Source: a virus. From it: a stretch of 17,746 bases of DNA. Below, piece by piece: positions 9,745-17,696 of the stretch. The stretch's first letter is position 1; the number at the start of each line of letters is the position of its first letter. The notes under the pieces are model-generated. The model did not search any database and was not told the DNA's origin. It saw nothing but the letters and a program-made list of their open reading frames with translations. The stretch is from the UHGV virus genome UHGV-0072542, one strand, 5' to 3'. The position numbers and the translations under genes are program-made.

Positions 9745-10152
9745 TTATCTTTTATAGCCTTGCCCCTTTCTGGCCAGCGCCCTGATGGCCGGGCGTGCCA
9801 ACACCATATTTTGGCAATGATGAATTGCCCGGCAAAATTCATCTCTACCCATTGGATGCTCAACTGGCAACGTTAAATACAGGTTCCATGCGTCGCCTAA
9901 AAGTTGGGCTATCTTTTGTTCTTCAGATGTCAGCAAGCAAGCGGTATCCGTAAAATAATCATACTTTTCATGTATGTTATTTAACGGTTTTGTCTGTAGT
10001 GCAGCCTGAGCTATACGGTATGCCTGAAGCATACTGGCGTCGTTGATATCCATTCCGAACGGAATTTCTGATGATTGTGACTCTGCATCTTCAAGCCTGG
10101 CAATTTCTTTACGTAAGAAGTACTTCAACTCTTGTTTCTGTTTTCTGTTCAT
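9745..10152 (-). CDS. hypothetical protein (135 aa), second gene of two-gene cargo cassette
   Basis: The ATG at 10150-10152 overlaps the upstream stop (ATGA). The gene is AT-richer than the flanking phage genes. No recognisable family; the product is [25 protein letters not shown]...[28 protein letters not shown]. Confidence 0.6.
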
Positions 10153-10481
10153 GCGTTTTTTTCCTTTTTGTCTGTCACTTCTTTCCTGATAATTTCATTG
10201 CACAAATCCACGCACTCATTGCAGATGTAAACAGACGGTCCGGCAATCACCTTTGTGACTTCGTACTGGGATTTATTGCAGAAACTGCAATAAACCGTCT
10301 TCTCGCCTGAAGTCCATGTTTTGCTGGTTTCGCCAGACATCAGTTGTTTGAGGTCTTTTTCACGACGAAGAACTATCTGGCCACATTCAGCTATTTTTTG
10401 GATGTTGACATTTTCTGCTTTCGCCAGCGCTTCCATCCGCTCAATCAGTCGCTGCGCTTTTTCTCTGTCAATGTGTTGCAT
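10149..10481 (-). CDS. small protein with C-terminal ClpX-type C4 zinc-binding domain (ZBD) and N-terminal helical region
   Basis: The C-terminus [40 protein letters not shown] is near-identical in pattern to the N-terminal zinc-binding domain of E. coli ClpX ([34 protein letters not shown], recalled). ATG at 10481 with an AAGGGGGA SD 5 nt upstream. Confidence 0.7.
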
Positions 10482-10544: not shown

Positions 10545-10856
10545 TTATTCGGGAAATAACGCCCGGATATTTCCGGCCATCTGACTGGTTATCTGTGCGG
10601 CTGATACTGGCTGTGACGCGGGGCGTTCTGTCCTGGTTTGTGTCACTGATAACGCCTCATCATCAGCCCATGCAGCCAGTCGGTAAGCCTCTGCCGGATT
10701 CATTTTCAGTAGTGCCAGCCCGGCCAGAAAAGCCACGCGTTGACCACTTTTGCGGGCTTCTGGTGTAAGGCTGTCCAGCCAGGCGCATGCTTCGCCTTCG
10801 TTCTTGACGGCGGCGGGCTTCAGATAGAAACTTATCCGTCTGGTTGGTGTCGTCAT
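10545..10856 (-). CDS. parR: ParR-like centromere-binding protein (type II partition)
   Basis: RRISFYLKPAAVKNEGEACAWLDSLTPEARKSGQRVAFLAGLALL resembles the recalled R1 ParR N-terminus (RTIAFKLNPDVNQTDKIVCDTLDSIPQGERSRLNRAALTAGLALY). It lies 4 nt downstream of parM. Start taken at the internal ATG at 10856. Confidence 0.65.
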   Translation of the reverse strand: MTTPTRRISFYLKPAAVKNEGEACAWLDSLTPEARKSGQRVAFLAGLALLKMNPAEAYRLAAWADDEALSVTQTRTERPASQPVSAAQITSQMAGNIRALFPE

Positions 10857-10860
10857 TGGT

Positions 10861-11820
10861 TTACTCCTTGTCCATTGCGTACAGCCCATTAACCAGAGCA
10901 AACTGTGGCACCCCGTCCGCGATGAAGGTCGCATTAACTCCGCAGGCTTCGCGGATAGCGGGTGCCACAATCTCCGCCCCGCCACCGACAACCATCACCC
11001 GCCCGTAACCCGAAAAACCCGCCAGCGCGCGGATCACGCGTTGTTTCAGTGTTTCTTCCTTTTCACGAATAACCGCCATCAGGCTGGCGTAATGCGCGTC
11101 ATTGTGGATGTGCTGGCGCAGCCAGGCTTCATCATGGCGATGTTCGATAATGGTATTGGCGATGTGGTGACTGGTACGCATACCGTTAGTGGCCATCACC
11201 GACAGTACGGCATCGGCCATCAGGGAAACGCCTACGTGTGGATCGCAAAACACCTGGCTGATACCTGCCAGTTGTCCCTGAACCTTTGCCACATCCAGCG
11301 TGGTTCCGCCTAAATCCACAATCAGCAGGGATTCAAACGGACTCATGTCAGCCAGTGCTTTAAAACCAGCCGGAATGGATTCAGGCATAACCCGTACGTT
11401 ACGGATAGTGAATGCTTTTCCGTTCTGGTACGCCACCGGGCGCATGACGTTTGCTTTTTTGCGGTTGATGTTGGCCATGTCCGGCTGTGCGTTTGTGTCG
11501 AAATATTCGCTCAGTGGCAGGGTGACAACCACATCCACTTCCTGTGGTGTGATGCCTGATTTGACCAGCGCGTGATGAATGGCAATGACATTCACATCGC
11601 TGTACTGGTATTGCGTGTCGGTCGTCTGGACAAAGCGATCGCTGACTGGATCAAAACCATAGCGCACGCCATCAAGCATGTAGTTCGCGGGCTGCGTGCC
11701 ACCGAACGGCGCAGACCATTCCGACTTGAAGCTGTTCGGGCTGATGGCGTTGCGGCGTTCGCCGTTCTCAGTCCATGCCAGCTTGATGTTGGTGGAGCCG
11801 TCATCGATACAAATTTTCAT
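10861..11820 (-). CDS. parM: ParM/StbA-like actin-like segregation ATPase
   Basis: 319 aa. IDDGSTNIKLAW, ISPNSFK, YSDVNVIAIHHAL, IRNVRVMPESIPAG, LLIVDLGGTTLDV, VMVVGGGAEI and VNGLY match the recalled plasmid R1 ParM along its whole length. ATG at 11820 with an AAGGAAAA SD. Confidence 0.85.
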   Translation of the reverse strand: MKICIDDGSTNIKLAWTENGERRNAISPNSFKSEWSAPFGGTQPANYMLDGVRYGFDPVSDRFVQTTDTQYQYSDVNVIAIHHALVKSGITPQEVDVVVTLPLSEYFDTNAQPDMANINRKKANVMRPVAYQNGKAFTIRNVRVMPESIPAGFKALADMSPFESLLIVDLGGTTLDVAKVQGQLAGISQVFCDPHVGVSLMADAVLSVMATNGMRTSHHIANTIIEHRHDEAWLRQHIHNDAHYASLMAVIREKEETLKQRVIRALAGFSGYGRVMVVGGGAEIVAPAIREACGVNATFIADGVPQFALVNGLYAMDKE

Positions 11821-11850: not shown

Positions 11851-11962
11851 GTTTACGGGATTCTGAAATCCCGTTTTTGCCTGTTTTATGCGCGCTTCAT
11901 ATATCGCGGCGCGTTTTTTGCTCATTTACGGGATTTGTGAATCCCGTTTCTGTCTGTTTTTT
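11851..11962. repeat. two copies of a ~35-bp hairpin-containing repeat flanking the A stop / parM upstream region
   Basis: Copy 1 is tttacgggattCTGAaatcccgttttt (hairpin 11855-11874). Copy 2 is tttacgggattTGTGaatcccgtttct (hairpin 11928-11947). Both are followed by T-runs on the plus strand. Spacing is 73 bp, and copy 2 lies inside the 3' end of gene A. Confidence 0.5.
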
Positions 11963-14719
11963 GTTTCCACTGGTCAGGCCACCCCGCAGCAGGTCTGCTT
12001 TGCGGCGGGCGCGTTCAGTGGTTTCACTGATTCTCTGTGCGTGCTCTGCGTCGCGGATGGCGCGCAGCATGTCAGAAAGCACGGTAACGGGTGTTTTCAT
12101 GGTGTTCTGGTCCTGCTGAAGTGTGGATGCCAGGCGTGCGGCGGCTTCGGGGTCTGATGCCCCCAGCTGTTCCAGATAGCTGGCGACCGGGTTATGGCGG
12201 ATCTCCGTGCTGCTTACGCCGTGGTTACGGCTCAGGCGCTGCCAGAGCTGCGTGATCCGGCTGTCCGGTCGGGTATCCGGTTTGCGTACAATTTCAAATC
12301 CCTGCGGTGCAATGATGCTGCCGTCAACGTACAGGCTGCCTCCCCGTAACAGGTGCTGCATCTGCTGTTCACCGATATGCAGGCCGAGAGATTCGGCAGA
12401 TTCCCGCCATTCTTTAGCGAGTAATTCGTGGTTATCAGGCAAAGGCCGCGGCTGTTTGCGGCTCTGTGTCCAGCTCTGCATTTCATCACTGCTGTTTTTT
12501 GCCTGTTTGTCACGCAGCGAACGCATCAGCGCCCGGCGTTCGTGCCGTTTCAGTGAGCGCATCCATTCATTCACATCAATGCCGTCAGGAAGCTGCGGCC
12601 ATGGTGCTGGCCGTTCTTCCGGCTGTTCTGTCCCGTTGTTGTCCGTTTCCTGTACACGGGGACAGTTATTGCCACGAGTCCAAGGGGCGGCAGGGCCGCC
12701 CTGAAGGTCAAAACCATTTTCGCGGGCGCTGTCTTCAGCTTCCGGTTTGCGTCTTACCAGCTTCCAGTTATCCGGATGCGTGCACACACGGGAGGATTCC
12801 CCGATGAGTGGTGACCAGATCCCGTAAATCTGTACGCTCTGTTCGCCGTAATCGTTCAGCTCATCGGCGAGGTCGTAGGCGGTGCGAATCAGGTAGTCTT
12901 TGCGTGGAACAAGTACGCCGCCCTGTTTCTCTATGTAGGTGGCAAAACATCCGGCATCAGCGGCAGCGAGTACCGCATCCATTGCGTCATCCTTCAGCCG
13001 TTGCGGGCCTTCCGGGTTGCGTGCCATCTGGCTGGCAAGGCGGCGGAGTTCACGCCACACCTGACGGGAGGGGATGCCAAAGAACTGGAACTGGCGGACC
13101 CGGTGAAGGCGCGCCCAGCCAATGGCACGCTCCACGCTCTCGGCCATTGATTTTCCGGATTCATGGTCAACGCGTGGTTTGCCCGTTTTCGGGTCGATGC
13201 CATCCACGGCGCGGCTGTCCAGGTTTTTTCCGATGTAGGTCGCGATATAGCTGGTTGGTGTGCCTTTTGAGCCGTCGACGTACTCCGCCTCAAAGCGCGG
13301 GGTTATGTCATCGCCCAGCTCGTGGCGGTCTTCCTGAATGGCAATATCGCAGACGTGAGACACAATGGTGTCGATTTCGTCCGGATGCGCAAAAACCATC
13401 ATGTGCCAGTGCACGGTACCGTCATGGTGAGGCTCCGCTGTGCGGATGCCATACCAGCGCAGACCTTCACGGTTCAGTTTCTTGCGGACCGCTGCAAAAA
13501 ACGTGTTAACCAGGTAATCGCTGGAGTCGCGCATGGTGGCCCCGTTCCATTTGGGATTCGGATGACCGTTCTCTGTTGTTGCGTGGTATTTTGACGGGCA
13601 GGTGACAGTCAGAAACACCGCTCTGTCGCCACGGGCTTCGGCCAGAAGTTCCAGTCCCTTCATGGTGGCCATCATTTCTGCCTTACGGTGAACCGGGTTA
13701 CTTACTCCCGCGTAATACACTGTCTCGAGATCAATCGTGAACCCGTCTTCGTTTTCCAGCATGAAACTTTTCAGGAAATCGCGTGTTTTCTCGCGCTGTG
13801 CGCGAAACTCGCTTAACGCGTCCTGGCTCAGATAGGGCGATGTTTTTCTGGAAACCAGACAGGCGGCGCGGAGTTGTTCTTCTCTCCACTCGCAACGTAA
13901 CAGCCACAGTTTGTGTTTCCACCATTGCGCACAGGTCAGGCGAAGGATTGCGCCCGGCAGCAGCTCCGTGTCCGGTTCGTTCCTCCGGTCTTTGTCTGTT
14001 GTCAGTGCGTCATAATGCGGAGGCATGGCGTGCAGGTGTAACGCCATGCGGGCCAGCATCTGATACGCCTTCAGCGTTACATCCATGGTCAGCTCGCCAT
14101 CAGTCGCGCCAAAGCCATCGCAGAGTTTTTCGAAGGTGCTGCTGAACATCGCCGCCGTCATGGTGGCCAGCGTCTGTATCTGGTGCTTGTTGAGCTGCGG
14201 CAGGTAAAGCAAATCATCCAGGCGTTCGCGTCCGGCAAGGGAGCGATAACCCGGTGTCAGCCAGTGTCCGTCAGTGCGATCCAGACGTTCGAATATTTTG
14301 CGCAGGGTTCCGCGTGCATAGCGTTCCGCCTGCCAGCTCTTTTTGCCTTTCCGGCGATCGGCTTCCTGTTTTTTGCGCAGGAAGGAGAGGTGGCGAATAA
14401 GCGGATCGCGCAGATAGGACGGCAGCAGGCGCAGCGAGGCCATGGCTTCATCCACCGCGCCGCGTGCCTGTTTTCTGGCGTCTCCTGCCAGTGTGATGGT
14501 TTTGTCCTGTTTTTCCTGTGCGTCCAGGCTTTTATTAATCAGGTTGCCCAGCGGCGTGGCGGAGAACGCCGCATCAGCCATTTCCTGGCGGCGCTCGTTC
14601 TCTACCCGGTAGGCATCCAGCCAGGAGGAAAGCGCGGATTCAGGAGCGGGGATCCCCGTTCCTTCACGCCCCACTGCGTGGCGCGGTTGTTGCCAGTCCC
14701 TGATGTACTCTGCCGTCAT
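11897..14719 (-). CDS. A: replication initiator endonuclease (P2 gpA-like, rolling-circle HUH family)
   Basis: 940 aa with the HUH-type motif VHWHMMVFAHP and the paired-tyrosine motif TSYIATYIGKN. Its position downstream of the early operon fits P2/186 gene A. Confidence 0.85.
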   Translation of the reverse strand: MTAEYIRDWQQPRHAVGREGTGIPAPESALSSWLDAYRVENERRQEMADAAFSATPLGNLINKSLDAQEKQDKTITLAGDARKQARGAVDEAMASLRLLPSYLRDPLIRHLSFLRKKQEADRRKGKKSWQAERYARGTLRKIFERLDRTDGHWLTPGYRSLAGRERLDDLLYLPQLNKHQIQTLATMTAAMFSSTFEKLCDGFGATDGELTMDVTLKAYQMLARMALHLHAMPPHYDALTTDKDRRNEPDTELLPGAILRLTCAQWWKHKLWLLRCEWREEQLRAACLVSRKTSPYLSQDALSEFRAQREKTRDFLKSFMLENEDGFTIDLETVYYAGVSNPVHRKAEMMATMKGLELLAEARGDRAVFLTVTCPSKYHATTENGHPNPKWNGATMRDSSDYLVNTFFAAVRKKLNREGLRWYGIRTAEPHHDGTVHWHMMVFAHPDEIDTIVSHVCDIAIQEDRHELGDDITPRFEAEYVDGSKGTPTSYIATYIGKNLDSRAVDGIDPKTGKPRVDHESGKSMAESVERAIGWARLHRVRQFQFFGIPSRQVWRELRRLASQMARNPEGPQRLKDDAMDAVLAAADAGCFATYIEKQGGVLVPRKDYLIRTAYDLADELNDYGEQSVQIYGIWSPLIGESSRVCTHPDNWKLVRRKPEAEDSARENGFDLQGGPAAPWTRGNNCPRVQETDNNGTEQPEERPAPWPQLPDGIDVNEWMRSLKRHERRALMRSLRDKQAKNSSDEMQSWTQSRKQPRPLPDNHELLAKEWRESAESLGLHIGEQQMQHLLRGGSLYVDGSIIAPQGFEIVRKPDTRPDSRITQLWQRLSRNHGVSSTEIRHNPVASYLEQLGASDPEAAARLASTLQQDQNTMKTPVTVLSDMLRAIRDAEHAQRISETTERARRKADLLRGGLTSGNKKQTETGFTNPVNEQKTRRDI

Positions 14720-15091: not shown

Positions 15092-15232
15092 TGCGGCAAT
15101 CCTCTTGTTACAGATGTGCGAAGGCCTCCCGCCACAAGGTGCAGGAAAGGCCCGGAACAGGAATTAATGGAGTTTGTTTTGCTGCCGGATGAGCTGCTGA
15201 AGCCCGACGTGGTTTCCGGCAGTTGGAGGTGC

Positions 15233-15478
15233 TCATGCTCTGATTTCCCTCAGTAGCTGGTTGAACATCTGGGTTAGTGGGTTGCTACACCCAAACGGCA
15301 TCGGGTTTACCTGATAAGAAAAGCGACCGCCTGTTTTGCGCTCTTTTCTTATGACTGAACCGCTGCGCCAGAGACGGCGTAGCTCCGCATTAATGGTTGT
15401 GGTTGGTGTATTCAGTGCTGCGGCGATTTCTCCACCGCTACAACCCGGATTGGCAGCGATGTAGTCCAGAATGGTCAT
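15233..15478 (-). CDS. hypothetical early-operon protein (81 aa)
   Basis: The ATG at 15476-15478 overlaps the upstream stop (ATGA). No family recognised. Confidence 0.5.
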   Translation of the reverse strand: MTILDYIAANPGCSGGEIAAALNTPTTTINAELRRLWRSGSVIRKERKTGGRFSYQVNPMPFGCSNPLTQMFNQLLREIRA

Positions 15479-15678
15479 CTGCGTGACTCCTGTACCTGTC
15501 TGATAAGATTCACCTGCACCACGTTGGTGGCGCAGAAGTAAGTGCCGTCAGTGAGATAGATGTGATGTGCATCCTTTTCTGAACGGTGTTTGTCGATTGT
15601 GGTAATCAGGCGTTCGTCAACTTCGTATTCACGTCCTCTGGAGGTGAAACGAACGACAGGAAAATGCTTAATTGCCAT
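15475..15678 (-). CDS. hypothetical early-operon protein (67 aa)
   Basis: The internal ATG at 15678 is preceded by an AAGGAGG SD 5 nt upstream. The ORF-track start at 15729 is a GTG with no SD. Confidence 0.5.
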   Translation of the reverse strand: MAIKHFPVVRFTSRGREYEVDERLITTIDKHRSEKDAHHIYLTDGTYFCATNVVQVNLIRQVQESRR

Positions 15679-15764
15679 TACGCCTCCTTGACGTGTGCGA
15701 ATACCTCCGCGAATGCGGATTGTTTTCACATTTTCTTATTTAACCTGGGGGCTTATTTGCGCGG

Positions 15765-15878
15765 TTATTCTTCAGTGAAAAAGCGTTCAATCTTTTTTAC
15801 TGAATTAATAATTCGCATAATCCCAATGGCGCAGACCACCGAAATAATCAGAACAAGCCATGAGATAAATATACTCAT
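15765..15878 (-). CDS. small hydrophobic peptide (37 aa, single predicted transmembrane helix)
   Basis: Hand translation gives MSIFISWLVLIISVVCAIGIMRIINSVKKIERFFTEE. The ATG at 15876-15878 overlaps the stop of the upstream gene (ATGA). Below the ORF-track length cutoff. Confidence 0.4.
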   Translation of the reverse strand: MSIFISWLVLIISVVCAIGIMRIINSVKKIERFFTEE

Positions 15879-16117
15879 GCGATATTTCCCAGCTTATACG
15901 GTTCAATATGTTCCCCGCATTCTGCGGCATAGATCAGCTCGGAAAGTTCGTTAAGTGCATCCAGATCATCAGCGTAAAAAGCCACGTCATACAGACTTCG
16001 GATTGCTCTGGTCAATGAGTCACGGGCCGCACGTTCAGCATGAGCGCCTGATGCACTTAAGCGAAAATAAAAACGCTCAAGTGCTTTGTTAATGAGAGTT
16101 TTATATTCTTTGCCCAT
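15875..16117 (-). CDS. hypothetical early-operon protein (80 aa, acidic)
   Basis: ATG at 16115-16117 with an AAAGGG SD. The ORF-track start at 16120 is a GTG. Confidence 0.5.
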   Translation of the reverse strand: MGKEYKTLINKALERFYFRLSASGAHAERAARDSLTRAIRSLYDVAFYADDLDALNELSELIYAAECGEHIEPYKLGNIA

Positions 16118-16128
16118 CACAACGCCCT

Positions 16129-16407
16129 TTAATCTGCTTTCTGAATTTCAGCTTCTGAATCCATACAAATAATTTCGATATAGGGTTCATCGTCATTAAC
16201 CTGACGTGCCTTTTCAGCTTCGCTAATGATTTCTCGTACGGTCTGGTACGGAAGCTCCACAGTCAGGCGCGTACCGTTCAGATAAACGTAAGTAGCTGCG
16301 TTTTTTTCGAATGGAACAACTCCGTCAATGGCTGATGCGCGTAATAACAGTTCACCGCGAAAATCAATAAAACGGATAAATACACCTTGTGCATGCTCTT
16401 TGGTCAT
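16129..16407 (-). CDS. hypothetical early-operon protein (92 aa)
   Basis: The internal ATG at 16407 has an AGGUG SD 5 nt upstream. The ORF-track start at 16467 is a TTG. Confidence 0.5.
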   Translation of the reverse strand: MTKEHAQGVFIRFIDFRGELLLRASAIDGVVPFEKNAATYVYLNGTRLTVELPYQTVREIISEAEKARQVNDDEPYIEIICMDSEAEIQKAD

Positions 16408-17216: not shown

Positions 17217-17291
17217 AGTGGTATATTGTGATCATCTAATAGCTCGTGAAATCATTTTGGTATCAAAAAAGATACCTGTCAAGGTTTTTGT
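17217..17291. promoter_or_regulatory. divergent switch region: early promoter (minus strand) with palindromic operator in its spacer
   Basis: Minus-strand TTGACA (complement of 17277-17282), a 17-nt spacer, then a CAAAAT -10-like hexamer. The spacer contains the perfect palindrome GGTATC-AAAAAA-GATACC (17259-17276). A GGTAT half-site-like copy lies at 17219-17223. Confidence 0.45.
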
Positions 17292-17696
17292 ATGAAAAAT
17301 GATATTGGTCAGCGGTTGCGTGAGGAAAGGGAAAGATTGGGACTTAGTCAAGTTGCCATGAGCGACATTGGTGGAGTCAAAAAGCTAACTCAGCTTAGAT
17401 ATGAGAAAGGAGATAGCTTTCCTGATGCTGCGTATTTGGCAGCGCTGTCTCGTTTTGGCCTTGATGTTCAGTATGTTGTGTTGGGAATTCACTCATCTGA
17501 AACTTATAACGATGATGAGCAGGAGTTGATTACTCGCTTTCGAGCAGCTTCGTTAGATGTGAAAAATGCGGTGATTGGGGCTTTAAAAGGTGCGATCAGT
17601 GAAAAGGAAACTCAGCCATCAGGACGTGAGTTAAATATTTCTGGTGGTAATAACCGTATCGCTGGTCGTGACTATAACGAAACTAAGGGTAGGTGA
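17292..17696 (+). CDS. phage repressor, XRE-family HTH (immunity repressor candidate)
   Basis: 134 aa. IGQRLREERERLGLSQVAMSDIGGVKKLTQLRYEKGDSFPDAAYLAALSRFGLDV is a canonical XRE HTH. The gene is divergent from the early operon and AT-rich. Confidence 0.8.
   Translation: MKNDIGQRLREERERLGLSQVAMSDIGGVKKLTQLRYEKGDSFPDAAYLAALSRFGLDVQYVVLGIHSSETYNDDEQELITRFRAASLDVKNAVIGALKGAISEKETQPSGRELNISGGNNRIAGRDYNETKGR

Follow-up and report, generated by a model that had tools for sequence, protein, structure and literature searches.

A short open reading frame of 37 codons on the minus strand of the virus genome UHGV-0072542 is very probably a real, translated gene for a small membrane peptide. The DNA analysed (hereafter the window, 17,746 nucleotides in all) is a P88-like Escherichia coli prophage of the genus Xuanwuvirus (P2 family, Peduoviridae), and the gene lies directly behind a gene of the DUF4754 family, whose stop codon it overlaps. 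The frame reads from an ATG at 15878-15876 to a TAA at 15767-15765 on the minus strand and its translation is exactly MSIFISWLVLIISVVCAIGIMRIINSVKKIERFFTEE, in agreement with the 37-codon frame reported in the first-pass annotation of this DNA. Length alone does not set the frame apart, with 45 ORFs of at least 30 aa overlapping the last 3.7 kb of the window; it goes beyond chance because it is conserved in ~200 related loci and shows a dN/dS that is specific to its frame. The features discussed below are listed in Table 1.

Table 1 Positions of the peptide gene, its parts and its surroundings in the window.
Feature	Position	Strand	Description
Small membrane peptide CDS	15765..15878	-	37 codons and TAA stop; product MSIFISWLVLIISVVCAIGIMRIINSVKKIERFFTEE
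Predicted transmembrane helix	15816..15872	-	Codons 3-21, IFISWLVLIISVVCAIGIM; from hydropathy, AF2 helix and conservation
Basic/amphipathic tail	15768..15815	-	Codons 22-37, RIINSVKKIERFFTEE; predicted cytoplasmic (positive-inside rule)
ATGA start/stop overlap	15875..15878	-	Putative translational coupling signal; peptide ATG shares three bases with DUF4754 TGA
Weak Shine-Dalgarno-like GGGA	15887..15890	-	9-12 nt upstream of ATG, within the last DUF4754 codons
DUF4754 gene, 80 aa	15875..16117	-	Pfam PF15946, E = 1.9e-52; directly precedes the peptide gene
Hairpin, 5 bp with 4-nt loop	15706..15719	.	Intergenic; 46 nt separate it from the peptide stop and 28 nt from the next gene
Next operon gene, 67 aa	15475..15678	-	phrog_3459; strong SD AAGGAGG
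Replication gene A	11897..14719		Pfam Phage_GPA
HTH repressor gene	17292..17696	+	Faces the early promoter
Sigma-70-like early promoter	17254..17282	-	TTGACA-17-CAAAAT; faces the repressor gene

The late genes of the prophage (capsid, terminase, portal and lysis cassette) are found at 1.4-9.3 kb, and the early operon that contains the peptide gene is presumed to start at the sigma-70-like promoter. Its genes follow in the order Arc-like, Cox-like, DUF4761, phrog_3800, DUF4754 and peptide, and continue 3' of the peptide gene with phrog_3459, a MarR-type wHTH gene, phrog_3237 and gene A. The annotations of phage P88 and of the E. coli E2348/69 prophage show an identical order, which also matches the early region of P2. 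Gene order, promoter and P88 annotation together make the peptide gene part of the early lytic operon of this P2-family prophage, and the first-pass annotation had likewise assigned it to the early operon. No terminator-like site was found on the coding strand between the peptide gene and its neighbours, and no Rfam family reached its gathering score anywhere in the window. The peptide frame ends 86 nt before the phrog_3459 gene.

Conservation of the frame was assessed in about 210 related loci drawn from IMG/VR, one E. albertii genome and NCBI assemblies. Among the first 190 loci, 173 encode a product of 37 aa, and when distinct 500-nt regions were considered, the full product of 37 or 41 aa is encoded by 147 of 161. 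The length exceptions that can still be aligned are single-base indels in homopolymers, with T5 reduced to T4 (yielding 45 aa and a different tail) or A6 extended to A7 (yielding 30 aa), and such frameshift alleles occur naturally in about 9% of the distinct regions. Both runs are situated inside the gene near its 3' end, at window positions 15780-15800 (loci L082 and L104 are examples). Many independent genomes contain the 45-aa form, which loses the otherwise invariant F34, so that it could be real slipped-strand variation and not sequencing error; such alleles may be dead, or else the tail is dispensable. Given the natural frameshift alleles, the peptide gene appears to be non-essential.

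Substitutions among the relatives point to selection acting on the encoded protein. Tree-based parsimony over 64 alleles, in which recombination may inflate the event counts but leaves the classification of each change unaffected, assigned 104.5 synonymous and 108.5 non-synonymous events to 24.5 and 86.5 sites, respectively. This corresponds to a dN/dS of 0.29 in the peptide frame as compared to 1.07 and 1.72 in the other sense frames, with a synonymous excess in the peptide frame (binomial p = 9e-18) and changes distributed over its codon positions as 61/27/125. Pairwise comparison of 55 distinct 37-codon alleles gave a pN/pS of 0.27 for the peptide frame, 1.30 and 1.10 for the other sense frames, and 1.54, 0.36 and 1.06 for the antisense frames, the value of 0.36 belonging to the one frame that shares its wobble positions with the peptide frame. 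Codon position 3 holds 59% of the nucleotide diversity (permutation p = 0.003). The neighbouring DUF4754 gene has a pN/pS of 0.20, close to that of the peptide, and the 41-aa subfamily analysed alone gave an independent value of 0.41 versus 0.86 and 5.0 in the other frames. This pattern of substitution identifies the ORF as a true protein-coding gene on which purifying selection acts in the frame originally described. Conservation of the frame in related phages and the balance of synonymous and non-synonymous variation had been proposed as checks in the first-pass annotation, and both came out in favour of the gene, with the frame intact in most distinct regions and the synonymous excess confined to this sense frame.

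Two further ORFs across the same stretch were considered and rejected. An overlapping sense ORF (15805..15930, minus strand, …NRISWEISHEYIYLMACSDYFGGLRHWDYANY) is open in all relatives, yet its pN/pS of 1.1-1.3 indicates that it is not coding, and roughly half of the loci carry an interrupted version of a 122-aa antisense ORF (15586..15954).

The start of the peptide gene is suited to translation by ribosomes arriving from DUF4754. The overlapping ATGA was found in 189 of the 190 loci of the first set, with GTGA in the remaining one, and in all 118 DUF4754-preceded matches of a peptide-first scan (see below). The weak GGGA upstream is predicted to form a duplex of -4.6 kcal/mol with the anti-SD, a value comparable to those of several neighbouring operon genes. 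In three diverged lineages the C-termini of the DUF4754 proteins differ (…LGNIA, …TEVAA and …QEEA), all of these genes end in GCATGA, and each lineage carries a purine- or G-rich motif 4-12 nt upstream of the ATG (GGGAA/GGGGAA, GAGGTGG and AGGAGGA, respectively). The canonical AGGAGGA belongs to the lineage of locus L197, where the duplex reaches -10.3 kcal/mol and the overlapping protein sequence is different. Overlap and G-rich motif are both still present where the DUF4754 protein retains only about 40% identity. Retention of an SD-like motif across diverged DUF4754 C-termini is what selection for initiation at the peptide ATG would produce. Judged from these signals, the gene is most probably translated by coupling, and both the overlap with the upstream stop codon and the coupling proposed in the first-pass annotation are in keeping with this arrangement.

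The product is predicted to cross the membrane once. Mean Kyte-Doolittle hydropathy reaches 2.81 over residues 3-21, and the AlphaFold2 model, generated from a 25-sequence alignment, consists of one continuous helix from residue 2 to residue 35 (pLDDT 87.5); both predictions fit the single transmembrane helix and charged tail originally described. Charged residues of the tail are R22, K28, K29, R32, E31, E36 and E37. The basic residues among them (R22, K28, K29 and R32) all lie C-terminal to the hydrophobic stretch, the N-terminus comprising just M-S, and the KRRK end of the 41-aa relatives likewise lies C-terminal to the helix. The positive-inside rule is well established for membrane proteins, and because the basic residues follow the helix, it predicts an N-out, C-in topology for the peptide. 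A lipoprotein or a cleaved signal peptide was considered and rejected: the N-terminal M-S provides no basic n-region, the S-V-V before C16 does not form a lipobox of the pattern L-[AS]-[GA]-C, and C16 is itself variable, being M, I, F, Y or S in relatives.

The gene had been described as unannotated, which proved to be wrong, as RefSeq, GenBank and UniRef already carry it. In E. coli E2348/69 it is a PGAP CDS (WP_000021668.1, hypothetical protein), in the GenBank record of phage P88 the peptide is named "membrane protein" (AIZ95115.1), and its UniRef name is "Prophage membrane protein" (A0A0H0IEI8). The window peptide is an exact member of this P88-like "prophage membrane protein" set, and its gene holds the same position after DUF4754 in P88 and E2348/69. 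The set consists of automatic annotations only, without a Pfam, NCBIfam or PHROG model, and no functional information was found in the literature on the peptide, WP_000021668.1, DUF4754, DUF4761, Xuanwuvirus or P88. The identical 37-aa sequence occurs on at least 1000 contigs in a public protein collection. An 801-bp stretch of the window (15400-16200) matches 1366 of 5426 complete E. coli genomes, including EPEC E2348/69, and genomes that are 100% identical list three hypothetical proteins under this query.

The peptide is too short for word-indexed searches, and a natural 45-aa allele and the family alignment served as queries. A profile HMM search of 1.84 billion representatives returned the same family only, including its 41-aa branch (for example MSVFLSWVILIISVLMAIGIMRIIEALKNIESLFTGEERRK), so that the family comprises two branches of 37 and 41 aa with members all from Escherichia, Shigella, Salmonella and Citrobacter. 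Identity to the window peptide is 81-97% among the 37-aa members and 51-78% among the 41-aa members. Comparison of 41 diverse members shows no variation at M1, W7 and F34, and F4, S6, L10, I11, A17, G19, I20, R22, I24, I30 and E31 are conserved in at least 90%. The window peptide fits the resulting family pattern, M-[SN]-[IV]-F-x-S-W ... A-[IV]-G ... R-I-I ... I-E-x-x-F-[TS] with 37 or 41 aa, and the alignment shows constraint at specific positions of the helix as well as of the tail. Searches of Pfam, NCBIfam, PHROG and PADLOC with the peptide and the 41 family members gave nothing significant, and a PDB sequence search with the peptide profile gave no match. When 50,697 phage records were searched with tblastn, matches were confined to P88-like (Xuanwuvirus-type) phages. 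Phage 503458 gave a weak peptide match (56.8% identity), but its record contains a fragmented gene A, so that the weak match probably reflects an assembly-quality frameshift.

The AlphaFold2 model of the DUF4754 protein contains two helices (residues 4-48 and 52-66, pLDDT 89), and the protein is predicted to be a soluble alpha-helical hairpin. Comparison of this model with the PDB yielded generic helical matches only (E > 1), and a PDB sequence search yielded no match. In the GenBank record of P88 (L190, KP063541, 2692-2934), the DUF4754 gene is named "DNA modification methyltransferase", a name that looks unsupported: no methyltransferase match was obtained for DUF4754, only a sub-threshold PADLOC match to a segment of a type IIG enzyme (E = 0.023).

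The two genes were found together throughout. A peptide-first degenerate DNA scan of IMG/VR produced 120 matches, one of them an unrelated chance match, and DUF4754 is immediately upstream in 118 of the 119 family matches, the remaining one having no upstream sequence. At loci found via 41-aa peptides, the peptide gene again directly follows DUF4754 with a 4-nt overlap, and DUF4761 is upstream. In every locus examined DUF4754 and peptide genes co-occur in one order and with the overlap, and this pairing holds while genes further downstream vary. DUF4754 and peptide types mostly travel together; two recombinants argue against tight allele-specific co-adaptation, L195, in which a 41-aa peptide follows a DUF4754 of the window type, and L131, in which a 37-aa peptide (about 86% identical) follows a fourth type of DUF4754 (44% identity). 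Simple co-inheritance can likewise keep neighbouring genes linked, and it is from their linkage only that we infer an interaction between the two products.

We tentatively favour a mechanism in which the peptide acts through specific contacts and not through bulk damage to the membrane. Ribosomes terminating on DUF4754 would translate the peptide, so that both products would be made together, and the peptide would be anchored in the inner membrane, its basic tail facing the cytoplasm and the two residues of its N-terminus lying outside. Candidate contact surfaces are a face of small residues on the helix (S6, A17 and G19, next to W7) and the tail motif I30-E31-x-x-F34. Specific contacts are suggested because particular small residues of the helix and particular residues of the tail are conserved and because the gene was never found without DUF4754. 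The likeliest roles would be to tether or regulate the soluble DUF4754 protein at the membrane, or to bind a host membrane protein, in either case as a non-essential accessory function early in lytic growth. A more far-reaching reading, which we consider doubtful, is that DUF4754 and the peptide form an undescribed two-component early-phage module in which an inner-membrane anchor of 37-41 aa recruits or controls the helical hairpin as a means of disabling an anti-phage system or a membrane process of the host.

The main rival to specific contacts is a membrane-damaging toxic peptide, the reading put forward in the first-pass annotation, an explanation that is possible though rather unlikely and that draws on analogy. 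Here the helix would oligomerise in or perturb the inner membrane, collapsing the potential or blocking division as part of early host shutdown, and DUF4754 might be a timing or neutralising partner. Type I toxins have fewer than 50 aa, one hydrophobic helix and a charged end, and are often carried by mobile elements (PMC2887945, PMC8309996); the peptide resembles Hok/Gef, Ldr, Ibs, TisB and ShoB in its size, its single very hydrophobic helix and its charged C-terminal tail. A toxic product could be tolerated by a lysogen in which the operon is repressed. In position, the closest analogue is found in phage 186, where fil (a division inhibitor) and dhr (a host replication inhibitor) are short non-essential genes between the lysis-lysogeny switch and gene A, and the peptide gene shares with Kil/Fil-type division inhibitors the status of a non-essential gene in an early lytic operon. 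However, Fil (75 aa) and Dhr (66 aa) bear no visible sequence resemblance to the peptide and do not have its N-terminal transmembrane helix. In P2, no small hydrophobic ORF is annotated in the corresponding region. Neither tblastn in the 50,697 phage records nor PHROG revealed similarity in sequence to lambda Kil, Rac KilR, 186 Fil or DicB, and the Pfam and NCBIfam models of Hok_Gef, Ldr, TisB, Ibs and other toxins gave no match at E <= 1 for the window peptide or the 41 members, only sub-threshold matches to unrelated hydrophobic families being obtained. Moreover, the helix contains no charged or strongly polar residues that could line a pore, and the conserved specific residues of the tail would be unneeded for bulk membrane disruption. 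Conserved tail residues and obligate pairing thus weakly favour a specific interaction over generic membrane damage, whereas a toxin with a specific target would be just as likely to show purifying selection and conserved residues. The statement in the first-pass annotation that membrane peptides of phage early operons are typically host-takeover or toxic factors is an analogy and not evidence.

T4 Imm prevents the DNA entry of competing phages, and a comparable function of the peptide, as a small inner-membrane protein that mediates superinfection exclusion or blocks injection during lytic development, is improbable. The predicted inner-membrane location would suit such a role, as would the phage-borne, accessory and non-essential nature of the gene and its narrow, fast-evolving and lineage-specific distribution. 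Yet the gene is encoded in a repressed early operon and is not a lysogen-expressed moron with its own promoter, it matched no exclusion or defence family in PADLOC or PHROG, and exclusion would leave the obligate pairing with DUF4754 unexplained.

It is very unlikely that the peptide sequence is functionless and that the frame is kept open by a need for translation (as a regulatory uORF for the next gene), by constraint on the nucleic acid or by hitch-hiking. RNA-level features are indeed close by, in the form of a conserved hairpin and an A-rich stretch just downstream of the gene, the frame at 15805..15930 is also open in all relatives, and the antisense frame that shares wobble positions has a low pN/pS as well. 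Against this stands purifying selection at the amino-acid level that is specific to the peptide frame, with the other open sense frame evolving at the ratio given above and the antisense ORF broken in about half of the loci. In addition, the L131 peptide has kept about 86% identity though the accompanying DUF4754 protein is only 44% identical, and the next gene, 86 nt away, has a strong SD of its own. Least probable of all, to the point of being hardly credible, is the toxin of a type I toxin-antitoxin locus under antisense RNA control: prophage-borne systems of this type are known (PMC12648545) and the peptide is a small, hydrophobic, single-helix product encoded on a prophage, but its gene forms part of a polycistronic operon, with its start coupled to the stop of the gene before it and no antisense RNA or separate promoter detected, a consensus scan (which a weak promoter could escape) found no promoter-like site nearby on the opposite strand, no Rfam family reached threshold in the window and no type I toxin family was matched.

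The peptide belongs in kind with the small single-pass membrane proteins of phages and bacteria. It could be assigned neither to type I toxins, Kil/Fil inhibitors, holins or spanins, nor to proteins with a lipobox. Holin, antiholin and spanin functions were rejected on position: the holin, endolysin and Rz/Rz1 genes of this phage are at 1441-2918, about 13 kb away, and the peptide gene is in the early operon. KdpF, CydX, AcrZ, MgrB and MgtS are small single-pass subunits or regulators, and KdpF and CydX share an operon with their partner. The peptide is likewise single-pass, falls in the range of 30-50 aa and has a conserved face of small residues. In contrast to the KdpF/CydX type, it sits in a phage early operon, its linked partner DUF4754 is a predicted soluble helical hairpin and not a membrane complex, and the sequences are unrelated; annotation of the neighbouring early-operon genes lists no membrane protein. 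Small single-pass membrane proteins of phages and bacteria have been reviewed (PMC12648545).

Small phage membrane proteins are numerous and mostly uncharacterised, and this one is very common. Taken by itself, it is an ordinary small gene, hypothetical in status and already called by annotation pipelines, and it opens no long-standing question. What makes it worthwhile is how widespread it is and that it forms a clean two-gene cassette open to direct testing, and a peptide strictly coupled to DUF4754 could give that family its first functional context. If the two-component module were real, it would represent a common but unstudied device for host takeover or counter-defence, present in about a quarter of complete E. 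coli genomes.

The intergenic hairpin lies between the peptide stop at 15765-15767 and the next ATG at 15678, and on the mRNA strand it reads UCCGC-AUUC-GCGGA, preceded by an A-rich stretch. It was found in 199 of 209 related loci with a variable loop, and its stem occurs in two independent compensatory variants, UCCGU/ACGGA and UCUGC/GCAGA, so that two of the five pairs show compensatory change. Pairing is preserved in 98.8% of cells as compared to 36-61% in slid controls. On the opposite strand a T-rich run follows and the hairpin scores as terminator-like, whereas the sense strand is without a U-run; the hairpin may not belong to the peptide gene. Reading the hairpin as a mini-ORF (GTG AAA ACA ATC CGC ...) was rejected, as the GTG is GTA in many alleles and the stem shows compensatory changes.

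Several other observations were made in the surrounding operon and its relatives. In the RefSeq annotation of E2348/69, a truncated "ash family protein" pseudogene is present between the MarR-type and phrog_3237 genes (L001, 2689-2808), and the counterpart of this stretch in the window (15092-15232, minus strand) contains just a 42-aa ORF. Locus L195 (GCA_900536625.1, UNQI01000008.1) carries Mu-type transposase A/B genes at 1-2795, directly upstream of the region from DUF4761 to gene A, where they replace the usual integrase, repressor and Cox genes; this locus is either a Mu-like insertion into a prophage or a hybrid element. In the window, gene A is followed on the minus strand by a plasmid-type partition cassette with a ParM/StbA actin-like ATPase (10861-11820) and Plasmid_stab_B (10545-10991), and after the partition genes by a 110-aa protein with a ClpX-type C4 zinc finger (10149-10481, minus strand). 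The presence of a ParM module in a P2-family prophage suggests possible episomal maintenance.
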